A stretch of DNA of 64,000 bases. Origin: Flavobacteriaceae bacterium. GTDB lineage: Bacteria; Bacteroidota; Bacteroidia; Flavobacteriales; Flavobacteriaceae. Numbering within the stretch: the first letter of the stretch is position 1; the number at the start of each line of letters is the position of its first letter. The position numbers were made by a program, and so were the translations under genes. Below are positions 42,648-58,670 of this stretch, piece by piece. The notes beneath the pieces were generated by a model. It searched no databases. It was given only the letters and a program-made list of their open reading frames with translations, and was not told the origin of the DNA. The stretch spans positions 293,888-357,887 of the forward strand of contig OZ241330.1 of the NCBI GenBank assembly GCA_965200045.1, given 5' to 3'.

Positions 42648-44831
42648 TTAAACTAAGAATGCCTTTTTAGTTTCATTAAACGCTCTATACAATTGTTCTG
42701 ATGTTTTCATAAGCCATTCAAAATAAATTTCTTGTTTGGATTTGTCATCTATATTTTCTACATCTGATACACAAAGAATTCTTGAAGCTCTTTTTTCTTT
42801 GAGTTCTTGCCATTGGATTTCTTCTTTAACAAAACTTTCAAAATATTCTCTATTCTGAAACATTTGGTGAAATAACGTCTTTTTCGATGGTATGTAAATT
42901 TCCGCACCAAATCGATTTTTATGATTGCCTTTTAAATACCTTAACAGAACCACAAGAGCTCCTTTTATTTTGTGATTAGGGATCACCAAACTACACCTAG
43001 GGTTTAATATTGCTTTTTCATAAGACAGTTCTGTTCCCCTTTGTCGGGTTTTCGAATAATCTTGGAATCGTTTCCAAAAATCCAAATGTTTTTTTTGAGA
43101 CGCTGAAAGAGTTGAATCTTTTTCATTTAAAGAAAGTTCGGTTGCTTCTTGATTGTCTATATGAGGATATTTCCAAATATTCTTTGCTGTTTGAGATAGT
43201 ATCTCAGCTCGTTTCGTTATCGTGTCTACATTCCAATAATCAATGATCTTCAGAAAATCGTTCAGTCGAAGAGGAGAATGGTTAAATCCATTTTGGTGTT
43301 CCTTTTTGTACTGGAAAGACCTGTTTCCATATTCGGAATTATACCCTGTCAATGTGAGATTTCCAATAGTATTTAAATATTTATTATGTATTCTTTCCCA
43401 ATCTTCTCCTATCATCTCTTTCCAATCATTACTATTTTCAATTTCTTGGGGCATGATGTGCTCTACCGTTAAACGCGGTGGAATTAATCTCTCCCTATTT
43501 CTATCCAATTCCTCTTCCATACGACGTAGGATATAGTTTCGAACATCTTGGATGATGTGATTGGAAGTAAAGTCTTCTAAAAACTGATCATTATTTCGAA
43601 ATTTATTTTTTCCAGAAAGTTTCGTGATTTCAGATTTAAAACTGATGATGTAACGGTTTTTATTAATTTTTGAATACAAGCTGGCAAACACTTGATTGAA
43701 TCCCTCTTTACGTCCAGTAAAAAGGACCTTTCGGATTATAAAACTTTCTATATAATCTAAGATCAATAAAAATTCACTTCTATTGATTATCTCCTTCTGA
43801 TAATCGTCATAGAGACCGAGAAATAAGGGATATGCCTGAGGAATTTTAATGTCTAAACAGCATTGAAATGCCTTATGTAAGTCTCTGTCCTGTTCTTTTC
43901 CAAGAGCAATGTTTAGATAGTATTGTGAAAATACTTGGATCTCTTTAATCAGTTTTATTTTACCTGCTATGTCCGCTACTCTTATGGTATGTTCTTTAAA
44001 ATCTTCGTAAACCCGTCTTTTTTTACCCCTTCCATTTTTGAGAATGAGATATCTCCATACAAACAAAGAAAAATCTTCATTAAACTTGTCACCAAACTCC
44101 TCTTCCATAGGTTCCCATATTTTTTCATGAATCTTTTTCTGTTCGTTTTTTGGCAACCACATGAATAACCAGTTTTTGATTTTTTCAGCATCCGTTAATA
44201 ATTGACCGGTACTATTAATCGTTTCAAACACTAGTTGCGGGTCATCTATGTTTTGTTCTAGTTCTATAGCGACAAGAGATAGTCGGTACAAACCACGATA
44301 CAACCAATCCACATTTTCTTCCTTTATTTCATTAACGAAAAATTGATAACACTGGTACAGTTCTTTTTTTTTATCCTGTTCCGATAGATTCAAATTCTTG
44401 ATTAGTTTGTTAAATACAACATCGTCTCTTTTGCTTAAGATTAATTTTCTTTTATCCTCCTCGGTTGAAATCCGATTAAATAGAAACTCTTCAATCATTT
44501 TTTCGATGACTTCGGAATCGTATCTTCTTGTTGCTTTAAAAAAATTGTATAATGAAAGCACTAGCGTTATTATGGTTGTCAGTCGTTGCTGTCCATCGAT
44601 TAAATGGTAGATTCCAGGACTAGCGTGTCTTCTTGGTCTTTCTACATAATACACTATCGATCCAAGATAATGTTGCGCTTCGGTGTCTTCTTTTTCTCCA
44701 ATAGTCAAAAAATCATCGAAGATTCTTTGCCAATTTTTTTTCGTCCAGGAATACGCCCTTTGATAAATAGGAATTACGTACTGACTACGTTCCTCCATCA
44801 ATCTTAAAACGTCAACTTTTTCTACCTGCAT
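42648..44831 (-). CDS. GmrSD-like type IV (modification-dependent) restriction enzyme: DUF262 + DUF1524 + DUF4268-like tail
   Basis: DUF262 motifs IPIYQRAYSW and IDGQQRLTT. A DUF1524 His-Me-finger region LTVEHIMPQ..IGNLTLTGYNSEYGNRSF. The C-terminal ~150 aa (..HLDFWKRF..AEIYIPSKK..IQWQELKEKRASRI..) resemble DUF4268. Confidence 0.85.
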   Translation of the reverse strand: MQVEKVDVLRLMEERSQYVIPIYQRAYSWTKKNWQRIFDDFLTIGEKEDTEAQHYLGSIVYYVERPRRHASPGIYHLIDGQQRLTTIITLVLSLYNFFKATRRYDSEVIEKMIEEFLFNRISTEEDKRKLILSKRDDVVFNKLIKNLNLSEQDKKKELYQCYQFFVNEIKEENVDWLYRGLYRLSLVAIELEQNIDDPQLVFETINSTGQLLTDAEKIKNWLFMWLPKNEQKKIHEKIWEPMEEEFGDKFNEDFSLFVWRYLILKNGRGKKRRVYEDFKEHTIRVADIAGKIKLIKEIQVFSQYYLNIALGKEQDRDLHKAFQCCLDIKIPQAYPLFLGLYDDYQKEIINRSEFLLILDYIESFIIRKVLFTGRKEGFNQVFASLYSKINKNRYIISFKSEITKLSGKNKFRNNDQFLEDFTSNHIIQDVRNYILRRMEEELDRNRERLIPPRLTVEHIMPQEIENSNDWKEMIGEDWERIHNKYLNTIGNLTLTGYNSEYGNRSFQYKKEHQNGFNHSPLRLNDFLKIIDYWNVDTITKRAEILSQTAKNIWKYPHIDNQEATELSLNEKDSTLSASQKKHLDFWKRFQDYSKTRQRGTELSYEKAILNPRCSLVIPNHKIKGALVVLLRYLKGNHKNRFGAEIYIPSKKTLFHQMFQNREYFESFVKEEIQWQELKEKRASRILCVSDVENIDDKSKQEIYFEWLMKTSEQLYRAFNETKKAFLV

Positions 44832-44849
44832 AGTGTTTGTTTCCCATGT

Positions 44850-45455
44850 TCAACTTCCCACATACTTCTTCACCTTCGTTACTGTTGCCAAAGAAACTCC
44901 CAAGCGTCCACTAATATCTCTGTAAGACTTTCCTTTTTGCAATAACGAAATGATCTTTTGTGTCTTAGGTTTCTTTAAAAAAGTTTCTCGACTTTCAACA
45001 GAACCGTAGTTTCTACCAAACTTTCCACCTCGTTGTTTGTAAGCTTCCCTTCCTTGACGAATCCGTTCCGAAATAGTGTCTCGTTCCAATTCATAAACAC
45101 TAGCCATGACCGATACCATCATTTTCCATATAGGATTGGGAGAACCATCGGCTTTGCGACTGGGGAGACCCAATTCCTTTACCACAATGTTAATGTGATT
45201 GGCTTCCAAATGATGGATGGTCTGGAGCACATCGGCCGTATTTCTTCCTAATCGGCTGAGATCATCCACCACGATTTCCGTGACTTTCTTTTCTTGGACT
45301 AATTGCCATAACTGAGACGCTTGGGGACGTTCTTTAAAGGGTATCGCACCAGAAACACCCTTGTCAAAAAGCGTTATATCATAAGTGTCTTTGTCGAGGT
45401 CAAATCGCTTGCCTTCTTGTTGGTAAGTGGAGGTTCGGTTATACTTGATATTCAA
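44850..45455 (-). CDS. serine recombinase (resolvase/invertase family)
   Basis: Catalytic region YNRTSTYQQ, ..VVDDLSRLGRNTADVL.. and a C-terminal HTH (KSYRDISGRLGVSLATVTKV). TTG start. Confidence 0.85.
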   Translation of the reverse strand: MNIKYNRTSTYQQEGKRFDLDKDTYDITLFDKGVSGAIPFKERPQASQLWQLVQEKKVTEIVVDDLSRLGRNTADVLQTIHHLEANHINIVVKELGLPSRKADGSPNPIWKMMVSVMASVYELERDTISERIRQGREAYKQRGGKFGRNYGSVESRETFLKKPKTQKIISLLQKGKSYRDISGRLGVSLATVTKVKKYVGS

Positions 45456-45475
45456 TTGAAATGTTTCAAATGAAT
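45450..45475. promoter_or_regulatory. 26-bp imperfect palindrome overlapping the recombinase start codon (candidate recombinase binding/crossover site or operator)
   Basis: attcaattgaaatgtttcaaatgaat has 22 of 26 positions symmetric, with perfect inner arms TTGAAA-TG-TTTCAA. This is the same size class as hix/gix-type sites. Confidence 0.3.
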
Positions 45476-45671
45476 ATCAAAGATATAATTTGAAACAAAA
45501 CAAGGAATAATGAATATTTAACACGCCTTCAAGTGTTACACTTTATATTATTAAAATAAATACGCAAGCATGAGTGTGGGAAATCAAATATGTTTATCCC
45601 ACTTCTGTTATTAGCGTACTAAAAAATAAAGTAGGAAAAATAATTGTTTCTTTCTCTTTTTGTCCTCACAT

Positions 45672-45775
45672 ATAAAAACCTAACCGAAAATTTCACATCT
45701 GAGATTTTAGAATTAGGTGATGAGTGGAATTTGATATTATATTCATTTCGATCAAGTGTTTTTCATTTTGGTGTA
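45672..45775 (+). repeat. copy C of the recombinase-associated repeat
   Basis: ..gagattttagaattaggtgatgagtggaatttgatatt..tttcattttggtg aligns by eye with copy B (gaggtttttagaattcaatgatgggaagattttgatgct..ttcgttttggta). It lies about 250 bp upstream of the intact recombinase gene. Confidence 0.45.
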
Positions 45776-46041
45776 ATTTAATGTCTCCAAAGAATTACAG
45801 TCGAACCTCTTTTTTATAGGGCTTATATACCTGAGTGCACAAAGGGAGCTAAAAAAAAGAAATTATTTTACCTTTTCAGGTGGCGTTGAGAATAGGAGTT
45901 TAGCCAATGCTTCTGGTGATTCAGCTGGTATCGATCGAGATAAGTTAAGTATATCCCTCGTTTTAGGACGGCCACGGGGATTGGATTTTGGTTTGGTTTT
46001 CATATTTACCGCAAATTTAGTGTTTTACTTAAAATTATCTT

Positions 46042-47466
46042 TCACTTCATATAACCTAATTTTTTGTTTTGTCTTCTAAGTCCAGAAAGAGTGTAAATAT
46101 TACTTTTTAGTTTATTACAAGGACCACAAAGTAAAAGTCTATTTGATATATGATTTATACCTCCATCACTTACTGGTATATTATGATCTAATTCTAAGTA
46201 CCTACAATCATTAAAGACTTTATCACATCCTTTACATTGATAACCTTGTTGATCTAATAAATGTTCAAACATTTCTTGACGACTCCATCTTTTACCTGGT
46301 GGTTCTTGAACTTTTACTTTAACTCTTAATTCAGAAGACTCTACCTTTCCATCATCTGTTCTAATTGGAACCTCTTTTTTGAAATGGACTTTTAAACAGG
46401 GAGTGTTTTTTGGAGTCTCTCCATCAATGTAAAAATTTTCATCACGCATTCTAGCTAAAATCACTTCTTCTGTTTTATCCCAAATATCTATTCCAACCCA
46501 TTTTCTACCTAAACTCTCAGCAGCTAAAATTGTTGTCGCACAACCACAAAACGGATCTAATACCATATCGTCAATTTGGGTTGCCGTTTCGATTATTCTC
46601 TTATAAAGTGTCATTGGTTTTTGTGTTGGATACCAAAAAGGCTCTGATGGATCATCACTTTTTCTTCGTTTTCTAATTGGGTTTATATCATTCCAATGAT
46701 CTTCTAATAAACGACCTCTTTCTTTTGATAAGAAAACTTCATCTAAATTCTTTGGAACTCGACCTTGATTCTTTCTAGATTTAAATTCATCAGGTCTTTG
46801 ATTTTTTAATTTTCTATACGTAATTTCTCCCTTTTCATCAAATAATGACCCAAATCTAGATATTGTCGTTTCAGAAAGAGGTCCTCTTGCTAATTTGCCT
46901 ATTCGTTTTTTTTTCGCGTTTTTAGCGTACCAAAAAATAGTATCATGTTTTGTCTTATAATAATCAGTGTTTCTTCCACCCCCGACATCTAAATAACACC
47001 AGACTATTTCATTACAAAAACTTTTTTTTCCAAAAATAGCATCTAATAAAATTTTTATATAATGTCCTACACTATAATCACAATGAAGAAATATGCTTCC
47101 AGTTTCCTTCAATATTCTTTTCATTTCAAGCAATCTTACAGCCATAAAACATAAAAAAGCACCTACGTCTGAGCCAACTTCATTTCTCTCTTTTTTTAGA
47201 TTTTCCTTAGTCTTCTTCATATGAATTTGATTAGCTGCATCGATTACTTCCCAAACATCTCTATAGCTATCATAGATTTCATCTAACCATTCTGACTTCA
47301 CATCTTTTTCCCAAGACCAACGATCTTGAAATCTAGCTGATTTATCTATTCTGTCAGGAGTAGCATGGAAATCCCTTCCTTTCTTAAAGGGAGGGTCTGT
47401 TGCAATTAAATCAACAGACTGATCATTCATCGATCTTAAAAATTTTAAATTATCGCCATGAAACAA
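46042..47466 (-). CDS. DNA methyltransferase (N4/N6 beta-class) fused to a C-terminal HNH nuclease; the natural ATG (47509) is out of frame
   Basis: Motif IV ATDPPF, motif I DPFCGCATT and a C-terminal HNH finger CKGCDK..LELDHNIPVSDGGINHISNRLLLCGPCNKLKSN. The track start is a TTG. The frame stays open upstream through the C9 tract. Confidence 0.85.
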   Translation of the reverse strand: MFHGDNLKFLRSMNDQSVDLIATDPPFKKGRDFHATPDRIDKSARFQDRWSWEKDVKSEWLDEIYDSYRDVWEVIDAANQIHMKKTKENLKKERNEVGSDVGAFLCFMAVRLLEMKRILKETGSIFLHCDYSVGHYIKILLDAIFGKKSFCNEIVWCYLDVGGGRNTDYYKTKHDTIFWYAKNAKKKRIGKLARGPLSETTISRFGSLFDEKGEITYRKLKNQRPDEFKSRKNQGRVPKNLDEVFLSKERGRLLEDHWNDINPIRKRRKSDDPSEPFWYPTQKPMTLYKRIIETATQIDDMVLDPFCGCATTILAAESLGRKWVGIDIWDKTEEVILARMRDENFYIDGETPKNTPCLKVHFKKEVPIRTDDGKVESSELRVKVKVQEPPGKRWSRQEMFEHLLDQQGYQCKGCDKVFNDCRYLELDHNIPVSDGGINHISNRLLLCGPCNKLKSNIYTLSGLRRQNKKLGYMK

Positions 47467-47488
47467 TGTGCGATTTTTCCAATTTTCA

Positions 47489-47497
47489 GGGGGGGGG
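47489..47497 (-). repeat. homopolymeric C9 tract (G9 on the plus strand) at the 5' end of the methyltransferase-HNH gene
   Basis: Counted directly: ..aattttca ggggggggg taaattg.. on the plus strand. Confidence 0.9.
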
Positions 47498-47519
47498 TAA
47501 ATTGCTCATTAATAGATAC

Positions 47520-48521
47520 TTATGACTTTTCTATAGTTTGATAATTCGGATTACTTTTCTTCAGCATTAGATACGTTAACCGTTTTCCTTCAAACCCTGA
47601 AGCCATTTGATTCATTTGCTCGGTCGTGTTCATCCCGCGCACATTATGTCGACCAGCAAATTCCGTCACGTAACGATCCAAATGCCAAGAAGATAGTTTG
47701 TGATAAGTCCCATAATAGCCACGTTTCAATAAAGACCAAAACGATTCAATGCCATTGGTGTGGACATCCCCATTGACCCATTCATTCACTGAATGTTTGA
47801 CTTTTTGGTGCATGTATTCTTTCACTAATTGATTGTACGAAGATAAATCATCGGTAAATACTTCTGTTCCCTTCTCGGTTGTTTCATTGACAAAATCCGT
47901 TAATGTCTTTGTTTTGGTGTTCTCCACCACTTGAGCTTGCACTTGATTGGTTTCCCGATTTTTAGCACCAGCGACAATCGTTTTACCAATAGCACCTCTT
48001 CCCGCTTTTAACTTCTTATCCGCATGTTTGTTTTTCTCTTTGCCGCCCATGTAGGTTTCATCCACTTCGGTTGGTCCAGAAAATAAGCATTGATTCACTT
48101 CCCATGTTTTTCTGATACGATGAGCTAAATGCCATGCAGCTTTCTGTGTAATCCCTAAATCACGATGTAATTTCATGCTAGAGACGCCTTTAATGCCTGT
48201 CGTTAAAATATAAACCGCGATTGCCCAGATACGATAACCCAATTTGGTATCCTGCATCACACTATTCACCCGCACACTAAAACGCTTCCGACAATCTCGA
48301 CAATGATAAGGCATGGATGGATGTTTTGTACCACTTAAAATATTAGTGGATCCACAATGAGGACACTTGGGTTGATGCCCCCATCGTTGAAAAGCAAACC
48401 ATTGTTCTGCTGTTTCATCATCAGGAAACATCTTCAATATCTGGAACCATGAAATCCCTTTGCGATGATACTTTCCTGGGGCGATTCCTTTTTGTTTTTG
48501 AGTTGTTTTTGGTTGATTCAT
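47520..48521 (-). CDS. IS1595-family transposase (zinc ribbon + ISXO2-like DDE domain)
   Basis: ..AEQWFAFQRWGHQPKCPHCGS..YHCRDCRKRFSV.. zinc ribbon, then ..VDETYMGGKEKN.. and ..HTNGIESFWSLLKRGYYGTYH.., typical of ISXO2-like transposases. The ORF is intact at 333 aa. Confidence 0.9.
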   Translation of the reverse strand: MNQPKTTQKQKGIAPGKYHRKGISWFQILKMFPDDETAEQWFAFQRWGHQPKCPHCGSTNILSGTKHPSMPYHCRDCRKRFSVRVNSVMQDTKLGYRIWAIAVYILTTGIKGVSSMKLHRDLGITQKAAWHLAHRIRKTWEVNQCLFSGPTEVDETYMGGKEKNKHADKKLKAGRGAIGKTIVAGAKNRETNQVQAQVVENTKTKTLTDFVNETTEKGTEVFTDDLSSYNQLVKEYMHQKVKHSVNEWVNGDVHTNGIESFWSLLKRGYYGTYHKLSSWHLDRYVTEFAGRHNVRGMNTTEQMNQMASGFEGKRLTYLMLKKSNPNYQTIEKS

Positions 48522-48780
48522 GATATCTATTTTTGTCTATTTGAATGCACAAATATACACTTTTTTCTGAAAGAATCGGTATGAAATCAAAAAAAACAAT
48601 CAATAAATCATCTTTATTTCGACCTACAAAATAGAGGTTATTTGATTTGCCGATAAGATCAATCTAAAAAATCAGTTACTTTTGAGCACTCAGGTATATA
48701 AGCCCCTTTTTTATGTCATGTTGTCATAATTTAAGTTTTTGTTAACATATGGCACGATTTTAGGCAATACACGTTTATAT

Positions 48781-49335
48781 ATGGAGAACCTTATTTCAAG
48801 AGAATTATTATTCAATACAAGACAGAAAAATCTACAGAGATCTAAAAAATTTTATCATAAAGCCATAGAGGGAAGAAAGAGAGAGAAAAAGTTCGATGAA
48901 GTATCCATCTTTCTTTCGCATAAACATGGCGAAACTGAATTAATAGAACAGATAATCGTATTGTTTGAAGACCTTGGGGTTTCTGTTTATATTGATTGGT
49001 TGGATTCAGAAATGCCAAAAACAACGAATGGTTCCACAGCAAAAAGAATAAAAGAAAAAATCCGAAGTTGCGATAAGTTCATCTTTTTAGCAACCGAAAG
49101 GGCCATTTCTTCGAAATGGTGTAATTGGGAATTAGGCTATGGAGATTCTCAAAAGTTCTTCGAGAATATTGCAGTGATACCAATTACAGAAAAACCTAAA
49201 CAAGTCTATTCAGGCAATGAATATTTAGAGATATATCCAATTATTACTTCTCAGAACAGTTATTCTATTGGTGGTGAATTTTATCTTGAATTTGAAGATG
49301 AGAAAACTGAACTTTCAGATTGGTTAAAATCGTAG
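48781..49335 (+). CDS. TIR-domain protein
   Basis: ..VSIFLSHKHGETELIEQIIVLFEDLGVSVYIDW..IKEKIRSCDKFIFLATERAISSKWCNWELGYGD.. is a TIR-type beta-alpha pattern. ATG 48781 is preferred over the track's TTG 48739. Confidence 0.75.
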   Translation: MENLISRELLFNTRQKNLQRSKKFYHKAIEGRKREKKFDEVSIFLSHKHGETELIEQIIVLFEDLGVSVYIDWLDSEMPKTTNGSTAKRIKEKIRSCDKFIFLATERAISSKWCNWELGYGDSQKFFENIAVIPITEKPKQVYSGNEYLEIYPIITSQNSYSIGGEFYLEFEDEKTELSDWLKS

Positions 49336-49338
49336 ATT

Positions 49339-49773
49339 ATGAATAATAACGAGGTATTACACAAAGAAATTGATTTAATTCAAAACGTCATTTCTAGAAT
49401 GGCGAATAACTCCTTTCTTTTGAAAGGTTGGATGGTTGCAATCATTGTTGGGGTTTCAGTATTGACTCATGATTCATTAGTTACTGACGATAGTATTTAC
49501 TTTTCTTTAATTCTTGTTTTACCTGTTTTTGTTTTTTGGTATTTAGATGCATTTTTCCTTCACAAAGAAAAGTGCTATCGAAAACTTTACGAATGGGTTG
49601 TTAAAAACAGACATAAGACAAACAAAAACTTGTACTCTCTTGATTATACCCCTTTTGAAGGCAAAGTAGATTCGATACTAAAAATAATGTTCTCTAAAAC
49701 TTTAAGAGTGTTTTATGTTATACCTATTATCATATTTATAGCAATAATTTTATACAATATTTTAAATGGGTAA
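49339..49773 (+). CDS. small 3-TM membrane protein (candidate effector or anchor of the TIR operon)
   Basis: 144 aa with an N-terminal amphipathic helix and hydrophobic spans GWMVAIIVGVSVL, IYFSLILVLPVFVFWYLDAFFL and YVIPIIIFIAIILYNIL. There is a 3-nt gap to the upstream ORF and an 8-nt overlap with the downstream ORF. Confidence 0.7.
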   Translation: MNNNEVLHKEIDLIQNVISRMANNSFLLKGWMVAIIVGVSVLTHDSLVTDDSIYFSLILVLPVFVFWYLDAFFLHKEKCYRKLYEWVVKNRHKTNKNLYSLDYTPFEGKVDSILKIMFSKTLRVFYVIPIIIFIAIILYNILNG

Positions 49774-50446
49774 GAAAATATTTGTTTCGTATAAATACGC
49801 TGACACTTTGGTTGAACGACTATCCGAAGTGAGTTTGGAAGAACAAACAACTCCAAGGGATTATCTTAATATTTTTGAGAATACTATCGAGAACAAGGAT
49901 GATATTTACAAAGGAGAATCGGATGATGAAGACCTAGGCGACTTATCTAAGTCTACAATTGAAGATAAGTTAAAAGATAGAATACGTGATAGTACTATTA
50001 CTGTGGTCTTGATTTCAAAAGGAATGAAAGAAAACAGTAAATCTGAAAAGGAGCAATGGATTCCCTGGGAAATAAGTTATTCTTTAAAAGAAATATCAAG
50101 AGGGGGTAGAAAAAGTTTAACAAATGCCGTTTTAGCCGTTGTATTACCTGATAATTGTGGATCTTATGATTATTTTGTGCAAAAAGACGTGCAATGTGGC
50201 TGTCAAACTCTAATTGTATCCTTTCTTTTTCCGATTATGAGAAAGAATATGTTTAATATAAAAAATCCTAATACAAGGGAGTGTAATTGTGGTCGTTCAA
50301 ATGTATACTTTGATGATTATCCATCGTATATCTATACTATCGTATGGAAAGACTTTATCTTGAGTTATAATAAATATATCGATATTGCCGTTTCTCTTTT
50401 TGATAAGAGAGATAGATATAACATATCCAAAGAATTAGAGGACTAG
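49766..50446 (+). CDS. ThsB-like TIR-like (DUF1863-type) protein with Cys-rich C-terminus
   Basis: KIFVSYKYAD..IRDSTITVVLISKGMKENSKSEKEQWIPWEISY.. follows the DUF1863/ThsB pattern. The tail is ..QCGCQ..ECNCG.. Confidence 0.7.
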   Translation: MGKKIFVSYKYADTLVERLSEVSLEEQTTPRDYLNIFENTIENKDDIYKGESDDEDLGDLSKSTIEDKLKDRIRDSTITVVLISKGMKENSKSEKEQWIPWEISYSLKEISRGGRKSLTNAVLAVVLPDNCGSYDYFVQKDVQCGCQTLIVSFLFPIMRKNMFNIKNPNTRECNCGRSNVYFDDYPSYIYTIVWKDFILSYNKYIDIAVSLFDKRDRYNISKELED

Positions 50447-50568
50447 CACATAAGTATTAAAGATTCGGAAAAAACCATTTCTAGCTCCACATTGTTTGAC
50501 TATTAGTTGTCTTTGTTGTTTTTGGAACACTACGATTCTCAACTGTAGCTTACACTTCAAATAAAGAT

Positions 50569-51417
50569 TTAAATATTAGAAAAGTTATCTGAACCATCTA
50601 ATTGTATCACATATCGAAATCGAACTTCATCATTTTGATCGCCACGAGTGTCGTCTTTAATTCCCAGTATCTGAATGGCTGCGTAAAGGCCTTCCATATT
50701 TTTTAGTATGGCAATCTGATTCATCTCGACCGTTCGGCATCTCGAAGTGAAATTCAAATTTTTAGCTTCCGTGACATCTGAAATTGTCTGAATTTCTTTT
50801 TGAACCAATGCAACTCCTTGAATTGAAAGCGGATCGTTGTAAAGATGAATACGTGTATGACTTGCCTTACTCCACATTGTTTCAAATTTGGCTTTTCCGG
50901 AACCTATGACGCATCTTCCATTGTAATTGCTGTAGTCAAATGTAATTTCTCCTTGTGAATTTTTTATTCTTGGGGGAGGAATATTCGAATCTTTTCCACG
51001 TAAGTGTCGAAATCCGAGTTTCTCCGCCATTTCTTTTGCTAAAAGTTGAGAAGTCGGATAATCTCTAACTTTTAAATATTGAATATCCTGATCCAAACCA
51101 GGTAATATAGAATCATCAAACCGTACAGGGAGTATTTTTACTTGATTCTCGCTCATTGCCTTCATAGAATGCTCTGCTTCTAATCTTGGCCATTTCTTGG
51201 AACAGTAATCCTTTGAAATAAATAAGACAACATAGTTGCTTTTTTCAGCATAAATGTATTCCGTGATTTCAGTTAATGATTGACCCCAGTGAGCATTTTT
51301 GCTATGAATATCATAATAAACGCTCATACCGCTTGATAATAGGAAATTTGCTATGACTTCAATATAATCTCTCTGTTCTCCAGCAAAAGATAACGCTACA
51401 TCATATCGTTTATTCAT
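50569..51417 (-). CDS. TIR-domain protein with ~140-aa unassigned C-terminal domain
   Basis: The N-terminus YDVALSFAGEQRDYIEVIANFL..YVVLFISKDYCSKKWPRLEAEH.. is a classic bacterial TIR. The C-terminal half looks beta-rich and has no recognised family. Confidence 0.85.
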   Translation of the reverse strand: MNKRYDVALSFAGEQRDYIEVIANFLLSSGMSVYYDIHSKNAHWGQSLTEITEYIYAEKSNYVVLFISKDYCSKKWPRLEAEHSMKAMSENQVKILPVRFDDSILPGLDQDIQYLKVRDYPTSQLLAKEMAEKLGFRHLRGKDSNIPPPRIKNSQGEITFDYSNYNGRCVIGSGKAKFETMWSKASHTRIHLYNDPLSIQGVALVQKEIQTISDVTEAKNLNFTSRCRTVEMNQIAILKNMEGLYAAIQILGIKDDTRGDQNDEVRFRYVIQLDGSDNFSNI

Positions 51418-52915
51418 TTTGAGATTGGATCATTTCATTAAAATCAAATTCTTTAAGTGTGGGATGAAATGGTTCATATGTGCGTTTTAAACGATTCCAA
51501 TAGTTTCTTCCTTCTTCATAGCTGCCAATGTTTAGTACATATCGGTCGATAATGGCAAGAAGTATTTCTCGAGCTTCATAAACAATATCCTGTGAATACG
51601 ATTTCAAACTTTCCCTTTTTGATTTTGTCGAATGTACTTGCATATTTCTCAAATTGACTACAGCTTCTGAAACAGACATCTTCTTGGATTTACTAAACTT
51701 CTGAAAGTCATCTGATATTTGATTCTCATCCAGATTTATTCCAATATATGTGCAAAGCATTTGAATTTTGGAAGCCGCACTAATTCTCTCACCATCGTTT
51801 TTAGTCACCATTTTAAGTTTGTCAAATAAGATCCAATTCCAAAGTAATTCAATACCTACCTGTGCTAATATGAGACTTCCCTCCGTATGCCCTTGATTCG
51901 AATTCGCCTCAATATACCAATGAAGAAGATCTGATAATGCTTGTTCATCATCTTCCGTTTTTCTAATCTCATGCATTTGCTCTATAAATCTTGAATTAAC
52001 CCACGTATCATCACAAATTGGTTTGATAACGTCTTTATAGGGGCGAAATTTGGTATAATATGATATCTGAGAATCAATTAATGTGTTCTCATCATAAAAT
52101 TCGACAAAGACCATTCCAATATGACTTCTAGCAAAAAAACTCAAGCAAAATCTAAGTGTGTTTAAAACATTTCTTGCTTCATCAATCGTCATTCCTGATT
52201 CGAAGTTCATATACCCATGGTGGGTGATACAATGTCCACTGGCGTTTTTAAGGTCTTTTAATATTTTATCTTTTAAGTCATATCGACCATCAATTACTAC
52301 TTCTACTCCATTGGAAATTGAAAATCTGAGTCGATTTCGCTTCGATCTAAGTTTTCCATTGTCTTTGTTTTGAGTGATTTCACCGTAACTAAATGGTAGA
52401 TTAGTTATTGAAAATTCAACTTTTTGAACTAGTTTATTATCGTCGTCCTCTATTTCTTTTTCTTGAACAACTCCTTGAAAAATACCTTGACGGCCTAAAT
52501 GGCTTATGGTACTAGAACCAAAAAGTATTGGAATGGTTCCTAACAATTTATCACAAACAAAAACATCCACTGATTCTTGACCTAAGAAATACTCTAAAAC
52601 ATTTTCTTCATCTGAATATTTTATTTCTAATACCATCCTTGGACAAGGATGCCAATCAAATTGAATTTCACCTTGTTTAAACTTAAGCTCAAGAGATGTT
52701 TGGTTAAAGGCCGATATAGTAACATCTTTCAGCGTTTTTCCTATCTGTTCTTCCAACGTTATGTTCCAGTTGTCTAAGGTTTTAACGATGGTATCATATG
52801 GGAATCTCAATGAAACATATCCTTGATGTATTAATATGGCTTCATTGACGTCTTTGTTTAGATGTTTACGATCAAACAGCTTCGGCACGTTCTTAAAAAG
52901 GTATTCTACATCCAT
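51410..52915 (-). CDS. 501-aa protein with HEPN-like C-terminal domain (Rx4H), possibly ApeA-like
   Basis: There is an 8-nt overlap with the downstream TIR gene. The C-terminal ~150 aa look helical and contain ..VVNLRNMQVHSTK.. (R-x4-H). The size and layout recall ApeA-type HEPN proteins. The N-terminal ~330 aa are unassigned. Confidence 0.5.
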   Translation of the reverse strand: MDVEYLFKNVPKLFDRKHLNKDVNEAILIHQGYVSLRFPYDTIVKTLDNWNITLEEQIGKTLKDVTISAFNQTSLELKFKQGEIQFDWHPCPRMVLEIKYSDEENVLEYFLGQESVDVFVCDKLLGTIPILFGSSTISHLGRQGIFQGVVQEKEIEDDDNKLVQKVEFSITNLPFSYGEITQNKDNGKLRSKRNRLRFSISNGVEVVIDGRYDLKDKILKDLKNASGHCITHHGYMNFESGMTIDEARNVLNTLRFCLSFFARSHIGMVFVEFYDENTLIDSQISYYTKFRPYKDVIKPICDDTWVNSRFIEQMHEIRKTEDDEQALSDLLHWYIEANSNQGHTEGSLILAQVGIELLWNWILFDKLKMVTKNDGERISAASKIQMLCTYIGINLDENQISDDFQKFSKSKKMSVSEAVVNLRNMQVHSTKSKRESLKSYSQDIVYEAREILLAIIDRYVLNIGSYEEGRNYWNRLKRTYEPFHPTLKEFDFNEMIQSQNE

Positions 52916-53018
52916 ATTATCGAATTTCCATATTGAGTCTCATGAATAGAAACCATGAATCATCGACTTTAAAGATCAATTCAAAAAATCGCAAAAGCTT
53001 TTTCATCAAACCATGAAT

Positions 53019-53228
53019 TCATGAATCAAAGATAAACCGACCCGCAACTTTTGTAGTAGAACCAAATTTAAGGTATATTTTTCCTGTCATCTGCTCTTCA
53101 TAAAGTTCATAGTGCTTGAAGTCCGAGAAGTATAGAAGTTTGCAAATAATGGTCTTACCCACATGAGGTTTATCCTGGCAACAGTATATGATATAAAGTA
53201 ACGTTTCTTTAAATTTTCCTATATTCAA
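53019..53228 (-). pseudogene. N-terminal fragment of a DUF4065 (Panacea/SocA-like) antitoxin-domain gene
   Basis: ..GKTIICKLLYFSDFKHYELYEEQMTGKIYLKF.. matches the start of DUF4065 (K.LYF.D......G...TG..Y). The ORF stops after 69 codons. Confidence 0.45.
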
Positions 53229-57409: not shown

Positions 57410-57766
57410 CTATCTATTGGAGATGTCCTTCATGAGTTGTGTTATTTGAGATGTTAACCGCGGATAATCCATTTGAACCGTATCCCAAATAATATTCACT
57501 TTCAATTCTTCATAAAGATGAGCTACCTTATCTCTTAATCCAATCGCTTTATGCCATGGAATATGTGGGTGTTCCAACCTTAAATCTTCAGAGATGTCTT
57601 TGAGTGCATTTCCAATAAACACAATACTTTTGTAGCAAACGCATTGAACTAGGTAATCTTTTTCAAAATCTTGGTATGCATTATGTGATGAAAGATGATT
57701 GAAAATAGAATGACTTTCATCTTGGACGATGTGTAGTATTCTCAGATCGTTCTCTAATCGGGTCAT
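57410..57766 (-). CDS. HEPN-domain (DUF86/HepT-like) toxin
   Basis: 118 aa with the R-x4-H motif in ..AIGLRDKVAHLYEEL.. It lies immediately downstream of, and overlaps, the MNT-like gene. Confidence 0.85.
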   Translation of the reverse strand: MTRLENDLRILHIVQDESHSIFNHLSSHNAYQDFEKDYLVQCVCYKSIVFIGNALKDISEDLRLEHPHIPWHKAIGLRDKVAHLYEELKVNIIWDTVQMDYPRLTSQITQLMKDISNR

Positions 57767-58034
57767 GGTAATAAAACATTTCTTTATTCTCCGCGATTTG
57801 TTTTTGTAGATAATGGCGTTGTATCGAGACTTCGCTTAGTTCAATAAAATCAATTTTTTTACGTAACTTTTCCTCTAAATTGTTCCATAATTCAATAAAA
57901 TCCCAACCACAAGGCTTGTTTAAAGAATATAATATTCTCATCGATTCAGTGTTGTTCTCAAAAACACCAATTTCTTTTGGTTCATAAGGGGCCATTTCTT
58001 GAATGATGATTTCTTTTTCTTTTTCTGTAATCAT
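57717..58034 (-). CDS. MNT-like (minimal nucleotidyltransferase fold) partner of the HEPN toxin, catalytic motifs degenerate
   Basis: MITEKEKEIIIQEMAPYEPKEIGVFENNTESMRILYSLNKPCGWDFIELWNNLEEKLRKKIDFIEL.. is colinear with MNT antitoxins. However it has FENN in place of FGS and ILYS in place of DxD. ATG 58034 was chosen and the 82-codon upstream extension in the track is rejected. Confidence 0.65.
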   Translation of the reverse strand: MITEKEKEIIIQEMAPYEPKEIGVFENNTESMRILYSLNKPCGWDFIELWNNLEEKLRKKIDFIELSEVSIQRHYLQKQIAENKEMFYYHDPIRERSENTTHRPR

Positions 58035-58670
58035 GCTCTCTTCTTGAAACTCAAAGATACGAAAAACCTCGAACATCTTTGAATCATCGACTGGCTTGCA
58101 ATGATGTTTTTCGTGTTCGCCTTTTCTAGTATCTGAAAGAAAAAACAAAAGGGGATTTGGAAAGAAATAAAACCCACACCAAAGTGGGAGGGGGATGATT
58201 TTAATTGAAAATGATTGGGATAGATAATTGGGTATTGAAGACATGCCATTTGATTTTTGGGTTGAGACCATAAACTCCATCTATACTGAATGAAATCACG
58301 GCATCGACATAAAGATTTGGTGAATCGGAACGTTGACGTCGTATATTAGAAAATTCAATATCGAGCAGTTTCTATTGCATCACTTCTGTATATTCTTCAT
58401 ACGTACTATACTAATTCCGTTTCTTCGGAATCATAAAGAACCGAGAAAGGATTATCACCACACAGCAAGGAATGAGATTGAGATACCCCACATTTAGGGT
58501 GTTTTGTCGACGCCCTAATGTGCCGCTTCTCCAGAATAAATCCGAGCATCATAGAAATCAAATGGTTGAAACGTGTTTTTATCCCTAACTAATCGATGAT
58601 TGACAATATCTGTATTCGAATCATCGATGATTTTAACTTCCCTATTTTTCAGGTTTCTGTTGTACTTGAA

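Follow-up and report, generated by a model that had tools for sequence, protein, structure and literature searches.

Does a bacterial operon that joins a HEPN-type gene to a TIR gene encode one dedicated defence system, or two effectors that share a transcript? The question is raised by two minus-strand genes in a stretch of 64,000 nucleotides (nt) from a Flavobacteriaceae bacterium (assembly GCA_965200045.1, contig OZ241330.1, positions 293,888 to 357,887 of the forward strand), which is called the window here and whose numbering is used throughout. Gene A (51410..52915) encodes a 501-amino-acid (aa) protein that is assigned by its sequence to the YopA family, with a β-rich N-terminal region, a YopA_M region and a YopA_C/HEPN-type C-terminal region. 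Gene B (50569..51417) encodes a 282-aa protein in which a TIR domain is followed by a C-terminal domain (CTD), an architecture referred to below as TIR-CTD. A sequence-only reading of this DNA had proposed that the two genes form a dual-effector or sensor-effector abortive-infection module. Our analysis favours, with a probability of about 0.45, a composite operon of two self-sufficient abortive-infection effectors that are co-expressed as a layered defence.

The stop codon of A and the start codon of B overlap by 8 nt (ATGAATAA, 51410..51417, minus strand), the junction reading ...CAA AAT GAA TAA over ATG AAT AAA, which points to translational coupling. The identical overlap is present in four related loci, L002-L005 (handles of comparison loci begin with L, those of homologous proteins with P). 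A consensus scan for internal promoter or terminator signals in the operon gave no excess over shuffled sequence. The open reading frame (ORF) list and the sequence itself agreed with the coordinates, the overlap and the motifs that the sequence-only reading had given for the pair.

Gene A is a YopA-family protein with a HEPN-type motif

Word-indexed homologue searches with A, as a single sequence or as a profile, returned three proteins only, and an exhaustive HMMER search was needed to recover the family. This search gave 870 YopA-family clusters (E <= 1e-3; clusters at 50% identity), whose members are typically 440-460 aa long and cover aa ~80-480 of A. In precomputed annotation from a newer Pfam release, homologues that are 95% and 37% identical to A are assigned to YopA_M (PF26308) and YopA_C (PF27216). 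The YopA family is uncharacterised and is named for yopA of Bacillus phage SPβ, which was itself retrieved by tblastn of A (E = 1e-6). When the family profile was aligned to SPβ YopA with hhalign, the probability was 100% (E = 3e-49, 427 columns), and FRNKIVHP of the phage protein fell on the invariant motif described below. By these alignments A belongs to the YopA family over its full length and carries a HEPN-type catalytic motif. It differs from SPβ YopA and the rest of the family in a lineage-specific insertion of about 30 aa in the N-terminal region (aa ~43-74; 52694..52789, minus strand), which is absent from the other aligned members, in a longer C-terminal tail, and in its translational coupling to a TIR gene, which SPβ yopA and most members are without. 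Any role of the insertion in docking B is purely speculative.

The motif (R423-N-M-Q-V-H428; 51632..51649, minus strand; LRNMQVH is aa 422-428) had been picked out by the sequence-only reading as an Rx4H HEPN signature. By our rough estimate about 0.5 chance matches to R-x4-H would occur in a 501-aa protein, and a bare match is not significant. The R-N-x3-H match in A stands above chance because R423, N424 and H428 are invariant across 83 homologues (20-40% identity to A). Only six columns of that alignment are invariant (N172, E356, K383, R423, N424 and H428), so that the HEPN R-N-x3-H motif, which conforms to the conserved R-x4-6-H pattern, is among the few positions that the family never changes, and the signature is borne out. 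The motif also lies inside a match to the Pfam profile HEPN_Apea (aa 392-461, E = 0.0025); similarity to a HEPN profile is thus present, but at 18.7 bits it stays below the cutoff of 24.4. Weak HEPN_Apea matches were seen in 32 of the 83 relatives (E <= 0.01, best 1e-5) and ApeA_NTD1 matches in four of them (best 6e-7). PADLOC gave a weak Cas13-ApeA match to A and nothing else, NCBIfam gave no match to A, and PHROGs gave none to either A or SPβ YopA. Judged by its motif and family, A is probably a latent HEPN RNase.

The size and layout of A had also been likened to ApeA. This is a single-gene HEPN RNase that cuts tRNA anticodon loops and forms doughnut-shaped oligomers (10.64898/2026.01.26.701840, 10.64898/2026.03.20.713152), and it is activated by small ligands through a pocket separate from the active site (10.64898/2026.01.26.701840). 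The ligands are 5'-phospho-deoxydinucleotides for Ec2ApeA; for Ec1ApeA the ligand is unknown in DNA-phage infection and is an RNA structure in RNA-phage infection (10.64898/2026.01.26.701840, 10.64898/2026.03.20.713152). In A, as in ApeA (Gao_Ape; Ec1ApeA/Ec2ApeA, PDB 9HXN/9HXI), a large N-terminal region is followed by an R-N-x3-H motif close to the C-terminus, and ApeA genes, like those of the YopA family, are mostly single genes, sometimes within restriction-modification (R-M) operons. However, A is about 100 aa shorter (minimal ApeA homologues of ~467 aa have been reported), and neither its sequence nor its profile is significantly similar to Ec1ApeA or the 9HX* chains. The family profile of A retrieved no 9HX* (ApeA) chain from the PDB even at E <= 10, though 9HXN and 9HXI are present there. 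With hhalign the same profile gave an insignificant probability of 0.3% against Ec1ApeA, the best local alignment pairing the two R-N-x3-H motifs (VRNKITHR in Ec1ApeA). No ApeA family match was obtained for A with PADLOC or NCBIfam, and tblastn of Ec1ApeA against plasmids gave one weak match. Ec1ApeA itself (L108:2501-4303, E. coli) matched no Pfam family at E <= 0.01, HEPN_Apea and ApeA_NTD1 included, and no NCBIfam family at E <= 0.01. Since the founding ApeA protein matches none of these, the name 'ApeA' covers sequence-unrelated groups in current libraries. The likeness to ApeA therefore holds for the HEPN motif behind a large N-terminal region but does not extend to membership of the validated group, of which A would be at most a remote cousin. 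Nor is A a single gene at the window locus, where it overlaps the TIR gene by 8 nt; most YopA members are.

Gene B couples a TIR domain to an all-β domain

The TIR domain of B (aa 5-135; 51013..51405, minus strand) matched Pfam TIR_2 with E = 5e-15 and resembles those of AbTir and PdTIR. Profile searches of the PDB matched it to 7uwg, 8g83 and 7uxr, the AbTir, BtTir and PdTIR group being closest, and the best single-domain Foldseek match of B was AbTir (7uxu, template modelling (TM) score 0.83). The AlphaFold2 (AF2) model of the full protein had a mean per-residue confidence (pLDDT) of 87.7. A putative catalytic glutamate, E80 (W76-x3-E80; codon 51178..51180, minus strand), and the tryptophan W76 are both invariant in 60 homologues, and the W-x3-E motif aligns with WPQKE of 3h16 and WTEYE of 7uxr. 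In TIR NADases the glutamate of W-x3-E is the catalytic residue. The bacterial TIR domain that had been claimed for the N-terminus of B is upheld by these data, and B is probably an effector that consumes nicotinamide adenine dinucleotide (NAD+). Its family is large, comprising more than 680 clusters (90% identity) from many phyla with about 50% identity over the full length.

Other TIR systems were considered as homes for B. Assignment to Thoeris ThsB was rejected, as the PADLOC ThsB match was weak (E = 1e-4) and the TIR-CTD family is mostly stand-alone. TIR-STING and SPARTA TIR-APAZ were rejected because the Foldseek alignments span the TIR domain only. The match to the PADLOC single-gene candidate PDC-S66 is likewise confined to the TIR part (aa 2-98, aligned with positions 146-240 of the 282 in the profile), and B differs from it in architecture.

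The CTD (aa ~150-275; 50593..50970, minus strand) was modelled separately because Foldseek searches with the whole of B were dominated by TIR matches. AF2 predicted a nine-strand all-β domain (pLDDT 92.2, predicted TM score 0.86). Conservation over the last 130 aa equals that of the TIR domain, with many invariant polar residues, E157, R226, R228, N240, D255 and R266 among them. No Pfam, NCBIfam or PHROGs family matched the CTD, and the newer precomputed Pfam annotation gives TIR_2 only for this protein. The only significant PDB neighbours found with Foldseek were of the HmuY/BfrB type, the best being 8b6a (HmuY-like BfrB; E = 1e-4, TM 0.53, root-mean-square deviation 8.3 Å); with a TM of 0.53 and a deviation above 8 Å, kinship to HmuY/BfrB was judged uninformative. 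A viral structure library gave no significant match. The β-rich domain of unassigned family that had been described in B is thus supported by the model and by its absence from Pfam, NCBIfam and PHROGs, and the model indicates a real domain without a known family or a close solved structure.

The A+B pair is confined to one orthologous locus

All loci that carry both genes (L002-L005 and the decayed L091) are one locus orthologous to the window, with 90-97% nucleotide identity by blastn, and the boundary they have in common lies some 40-50 nt upstream of A. A+B is intact in L002 and L003, where the Thoeris-like operon next to it has been replaced.

Beyond this clade the distribution was sampled at about 18 independent YopA loci and about 15 independent TIR-CTD loci; searches with a closer alignment subset of A gave 10 genome loci. 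The YopA genes were mostly solo (L001, L092-L097, L099/L100, L115, and SPβ yopA, which has its own terminator). Five were last or internal in R-M-type operons, those for P0125, P0126 and P0127 after type I hsdR and those at L116 and L117 inside methyltransferase-helicase operons. No TIR-CTD gene stood beside YopA at any of the ~18 loci. The TIR-CTD genes were also mostly solo (L007/L012, L013, L015, L022, L111, L112 and L101), including the nearest relative of B outside the paired clade, P0006 (73% identity, L101). The others had varied partners: fused AbiJ_NTD4 in P0008-P0016, a separate AbiJ_NTD4 gene at L006, a DUF499 ATPase at L011 and, at L023/L024, an HTH-Mrr-STAND NTPase. No YopA gene stood beside TIR-CTD at any of the ~15 loci, and scans of viral contigs with the TIR-CTD alignment and two YopA alignments gave no match. 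The A+B pairing is a single evolutionary instance, an unusual combination restricted to one lineage and not an established two-gene system. The sequence-only reading had taken a failure of the two genes to co-occur in other genomes as an argument against its module, and this is largely the outcome, because no YopA/TIR-CTD pair was found beyond the orthologous locus.

YopA genes at L103-L107, L109, L116 and L117 were repeatedly terminal or internal in type I R-M or methyltransferase-helicase operons, some with start codons touching the hsdR stop.

Comparison of the window with L002 showed that both genes are under purifying selection (dN/dS, ω, of 0.29 for A and 0.33 for B), which argues that the pair is maintained and is not junk. 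Synonymous divergence climbs from 5' to 3', from 0.039 in the N-terminal part of A through 0.137 in its C-terminal part to 0.167 in B, suggesting a recombination breakpoint inside gene A.

Two co-expressed effectors as the preferred explanation

We favour two independent effectors because the YopA and TIR-CTD families are mostly found without each other. A and B would be co-transcribed and translationally coupled. By analogy with ApeA, A would be a latent RNase whose HEPN domain mediates dimerisation; a cue arising from infection would be sensed by the N-terminal and middle region of A itself and would switch the RNase on, and the activated enzyme would cut tRNA or other RNA so that translation stops. 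B would be a TIR-CTD enzyme of the stand-alone type, which on activation consumes NAD+, its conserved β-sandwich CTD probably acting as a regulatory or assembly module. The two would act in parallel, as a two-layer suicide that strikes RNA and NAD+, without a dedicated signal between them. The gene anatomy, the family assignments, the conserved catalytic motifs, the purifying selection and the distribution of the two families are observed, and what we infer in this scheme is the activity of each enzyme, its trigger and the lack of cross-talk. Both proteins look active, because the family-invariant residues are all kept (R423/N424/H428 in A; W76/E80 in B) and both genes are under purifying selection.

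Operons of this kind have been described. In a 2026 study, Pycsar and type IV Thoeris, two complete systems in one operon, act independently yet synergistically and without cross-activation (PMC13069673). Such composite operons (Pycsar + type IV Thoeris, Liu-DS6) likewise unite two modules that are autonomous elsewhere, but the components differ, and that hybrid occurs in 107 genomes as against a single lineage for A+B. In the 2025 Thoeris survey, stand-alone TIRs were excluded as likely NAD+-depleting effectors.

Several observations weigh against independence of the two genes. A start/stop overlap of 8 nt is seen more typically between genes with a functional link than between independent neighbours. 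TIR-CTD recurs in tight coupling on the 3' side of AbiJ_NTD4 (as a gene or a fusion), of a DUF499 ATPase and of a STAND NTPase, and these varied upstream partners hint that TIR-CTD often takes input from its partner. In Penaeicola halotolerans (L098:4650-7496) a YopA gene with the motif VRNKIIHS shares a 4-nt overlap with a gene for a 268-aa protein, which matched the PADLOC 'Effector TIR' of the cyclic-oligonucleotide-based antiphage signalling system (CBASS; E = 7e-6) and, below threshold, Pfam CAP12-PCTIR_TIR (E = 0.017) and Nuc_deoxyrib_tr. This protein is unrelated to TIR-CTD, and the locus is probably a second, independent pair of YopA with a TIR-like (Cap12/PycTIR-type) gene in the same order. 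Finally, in a related Flavobacteriaceae metagenome-assembled genome (L091:5106-7339, OZ244911.1) A is broken into ORFs of 167 and 288 aa and B is without its N-terminus, so that both are pseudogenes, and the adjacent Thoeris ORFs look intact; the outer flanks are unlike those of the window. There are few such hints of a link between YopA and TIR genes, and statistics would need a larger sample. The parts of the proposed dual-effector or sensor-effector module, a HEPN motif and a TIR domain, have thus stood, while dedicated pairing is weakened by its restriction to one orthologous locus and by the mostly autonomous life of both families; through the Penaeicola pair a functional link survives as a minority reading.

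One form that such a link could take is a guard or back-up coupling, in which the HEPN RNase would be silenced by a bound primary defence enzyme and would fire when a phage perturbs that partner. PrrC/EcoprrI is the precedent for this arrangement. In the relatives of A the partner would be HsdR of a type I R-M system or a methyltransferase-helicase complex; here it would be TIR-CTD. Of about 19 independent YopA loci, the five described above are embedded in or abut R-M-type operons, which fits this proposal, as does the occurrence of ApeA/BMEI1217 HEPN genes within R-M operons (Anantharaman et al. 2013); the translational coupling is tight both between A and B and between the YopA gene and the TIR-like gene of P. 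halotolerans. However, the many solo YopA members must be regulated autonomously, and the gene order differs, the YopA gene lying downstream of hsdR in the R-M cases and upstream of the TIR gene here. A physical association of A with B is itself hypothetical. We consider a guard arrangement unlikely.

Somewhat less likely still is signalling of the Thoeris kind, in which TIR-CTD would sense infection and convert NAD+ into a nucleotide signal, for example an isomer of cyclic ADP-ribose (cADPR), which would bind an ApeA-type pocket in A and turn the HEPN RNase on. The TIR domain of B is closest to the AbTir group. TIRs of this group make cADPR isomers. ApeA is activated by small nucleotide ligands away from its active site and the activator of Ec1ApeA in DNA-phage infection is unknown, both of which leave room for such a signal; the A/B overlap and the second YopA pair with a TIR-like gene in L098 are also consistent with it. 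Like Thoeris (TIR ThsB plus effector; types I-XI), A+B is part of a defence island and places a TIR gene with a catalytic glutamate next to a putative toxic effector. The 2025 Thoeris survey describes 29 effector configurations and indicates that effector types, RNases included, are still being found. Against this, co-occurrence, which defines such systems, was not found: both families are mainly unpaired, the nearest relatives of each gene are without the other, and effector association in the mainly stand-alone TIR-CTD family is not conserved, unlike in Thoeris. Neither the TIR-CTD signature nor a HEPN, ApeA or YopA effector was found in the text or in the supplement parts examined of the 2025 survey. 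In L098 the partner is probably a Cap12/PycTIR-type protein, and this type is an NADase effector in CBASS and Pycsar; hhalign against Ec1ApeA did not show homology between the N-terminal region of A and the ApeA pocket. A broader version, to which we give slightly less credence again, would have YopA/ApeA-type HEPN RNases connected to TIR enzymes in a new class of Thoeris-like systems, with TIR-CTD and the Penaeicola Cap12-type protein turning NAD+ into the nucleotide that opens the HEPN pocket. If true, this would link small-molecule activation of ApeA to TIR immune signalling and would give the widespread TIR-CTD family a role.

That A is instead the sensor of B is improbable. A would then fill the upstream slot of TIR-CTD, usually occupied by a sensor module (AbiJ_NTD4, fused or as its own gene, DUF499 or a STAND NTPase), and would relay infection sensing to the NADase while also acting as an RNase. 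Varied partners do lie 16-22 nt upstream of TIR-CTD, and the closest relatives of B beyond P0006 (P0007 to P0016, 55-60% identity) are associated with AbiJ_NTD4, one of the AbiJ-NTDs predicted as sensor domains common to HEPN and TIR effectors (Anantharaman et al. 2013), but P0006 and the greater part of its family stand alone, YopA-family proteins already have a full effector architecture themselves, and an A-B interaction is hypothetical. The same TIR-CTD core thus stands downstream of, or fused to, AbiJ_NTD4 in these nearest relatives, as in the modular abortive-infection proteins that join an N-terminal domain to an effector (Anantharaman et al. 2013), whereas the upstream partner of B is a complete HEPN protein and not a small sensor domain.

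Whether the two genes are coupled or not, the A+B combination is uncatalogued and is built from known kinds of parts. The sequence-only reading had allowed that the pair might already belong to a named system; none was found in PADLOC, NCBIfam or the examined parts of the 2025 Thoeris catalogue. If A and B merely coexist, the locus is another case of defence modules packed into one transcript, and even so it flags two under-studied families, YopA, with its invariant HEPN motif and frequent place on R-M operons, and TIR-CTD. If they are coupled, it would offer a tractable two-gene model for communication between a HEPN RNase and a TIR NADase, and could bring to light either a guard in the manner of PrrC or a new ligand of ApeA-like proteins that derives from a TIR.

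Other loci and the genomic neighbourhood

At L098 a gene for a 217-aa membrane protein follows 17 nt past the 268-aa gene, and a three-gene system is possible. The YopA gene at L109 also has a neighbour encoding 268 aa; a common partner was rejected, as the two proteins are unrelated and that of L109 is a WYL regulator.

At L024:1-5685 (and L023) four same-strand genes encode an HTH-Mrr_cat-STAND NTPase, TIR-CTD after 16 nt, a DUF7380 + DUF4209 protein after a further 79 nt, and a 489-aa protein whose N-terminus we read as PIN-like from its sequence. The DUF7380 + DUF4209 protein carries ALRNELAH and corresponds to PADLOC PDC-S39; DUF4209 is a HEPN family (Anantharaman et al. 2013). This arrangement was downgraded as a strong HEPN-TIR link: since PDC-S39 is a single-gene candidate, the adjacency may be island co-location. 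In Bacillus phage SPβ (L114:2887-6127) yopA (438 aa) adjoins yopB (HTH) and yopC (RES domain), and is a HEPN-type gene beside a probable NAD+-targeting toxin module in a prophage.

In the window, B ends 122 bp from the convergent gene 49766..50446 (plus strand), which encodes a 226-aa TIR-like protein, and three TIR-type proteins lie inside 48739..51417. ORFs and profiles confirmed the convergent operon of TIR, three-transmembrane and TIR proteins and the close grouping of three TIR proteins that had been reported here. This operon (48739..50446, plus strand) resembles type V Thoeris (TIR plus a DUF2270-type ThsF membrane effector). Its 226-aa and 198-aa TIRs closely resemble 'DUF2270 - Type V' TIRs of clusters 2742576382 and 2612357774 in Table S1 of bioRxiv 10.64898/2025.12.03.692087. 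Its 144-aa protein matched PADLOC PDC-M50A (E = 9e-40) and gave no local match to Pfam PF10028. The upstream edge of the block formed by A+B and, where present, the Thoeris genes falls at 52953..52965 and is common to all orthologous loci (judged from blastn breakpoints at L002-L005 and L091).

The remainder of the defence island (42648..48521) contains a GmrSD + DUF4268 protein (727 aa), a serine resolvase, a fusion of an N6/N4 methyltransferase with an HNH nuclease (474 aa) and an IS1595 transposase. Upstream of A, a 69-aa ORF (53019..53228, minus strand) with a weak SocA_Panacea match is probably a remnant; in L002 a complete SocA_Panacea gene (183 aa) lies elsewhere and is about 76% similar to the remnant's stretch at the DNA level. 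Further on, at 57410..58280 (minus strand), about 4.5 kb from gene A, a 118-aa protein, HepT-like by the annotation of the syntenic L003 (PF01934), overlaps an upstream 187-aa ORF, and the two may form a HEPN/MNT toxin-antitoxin pair.

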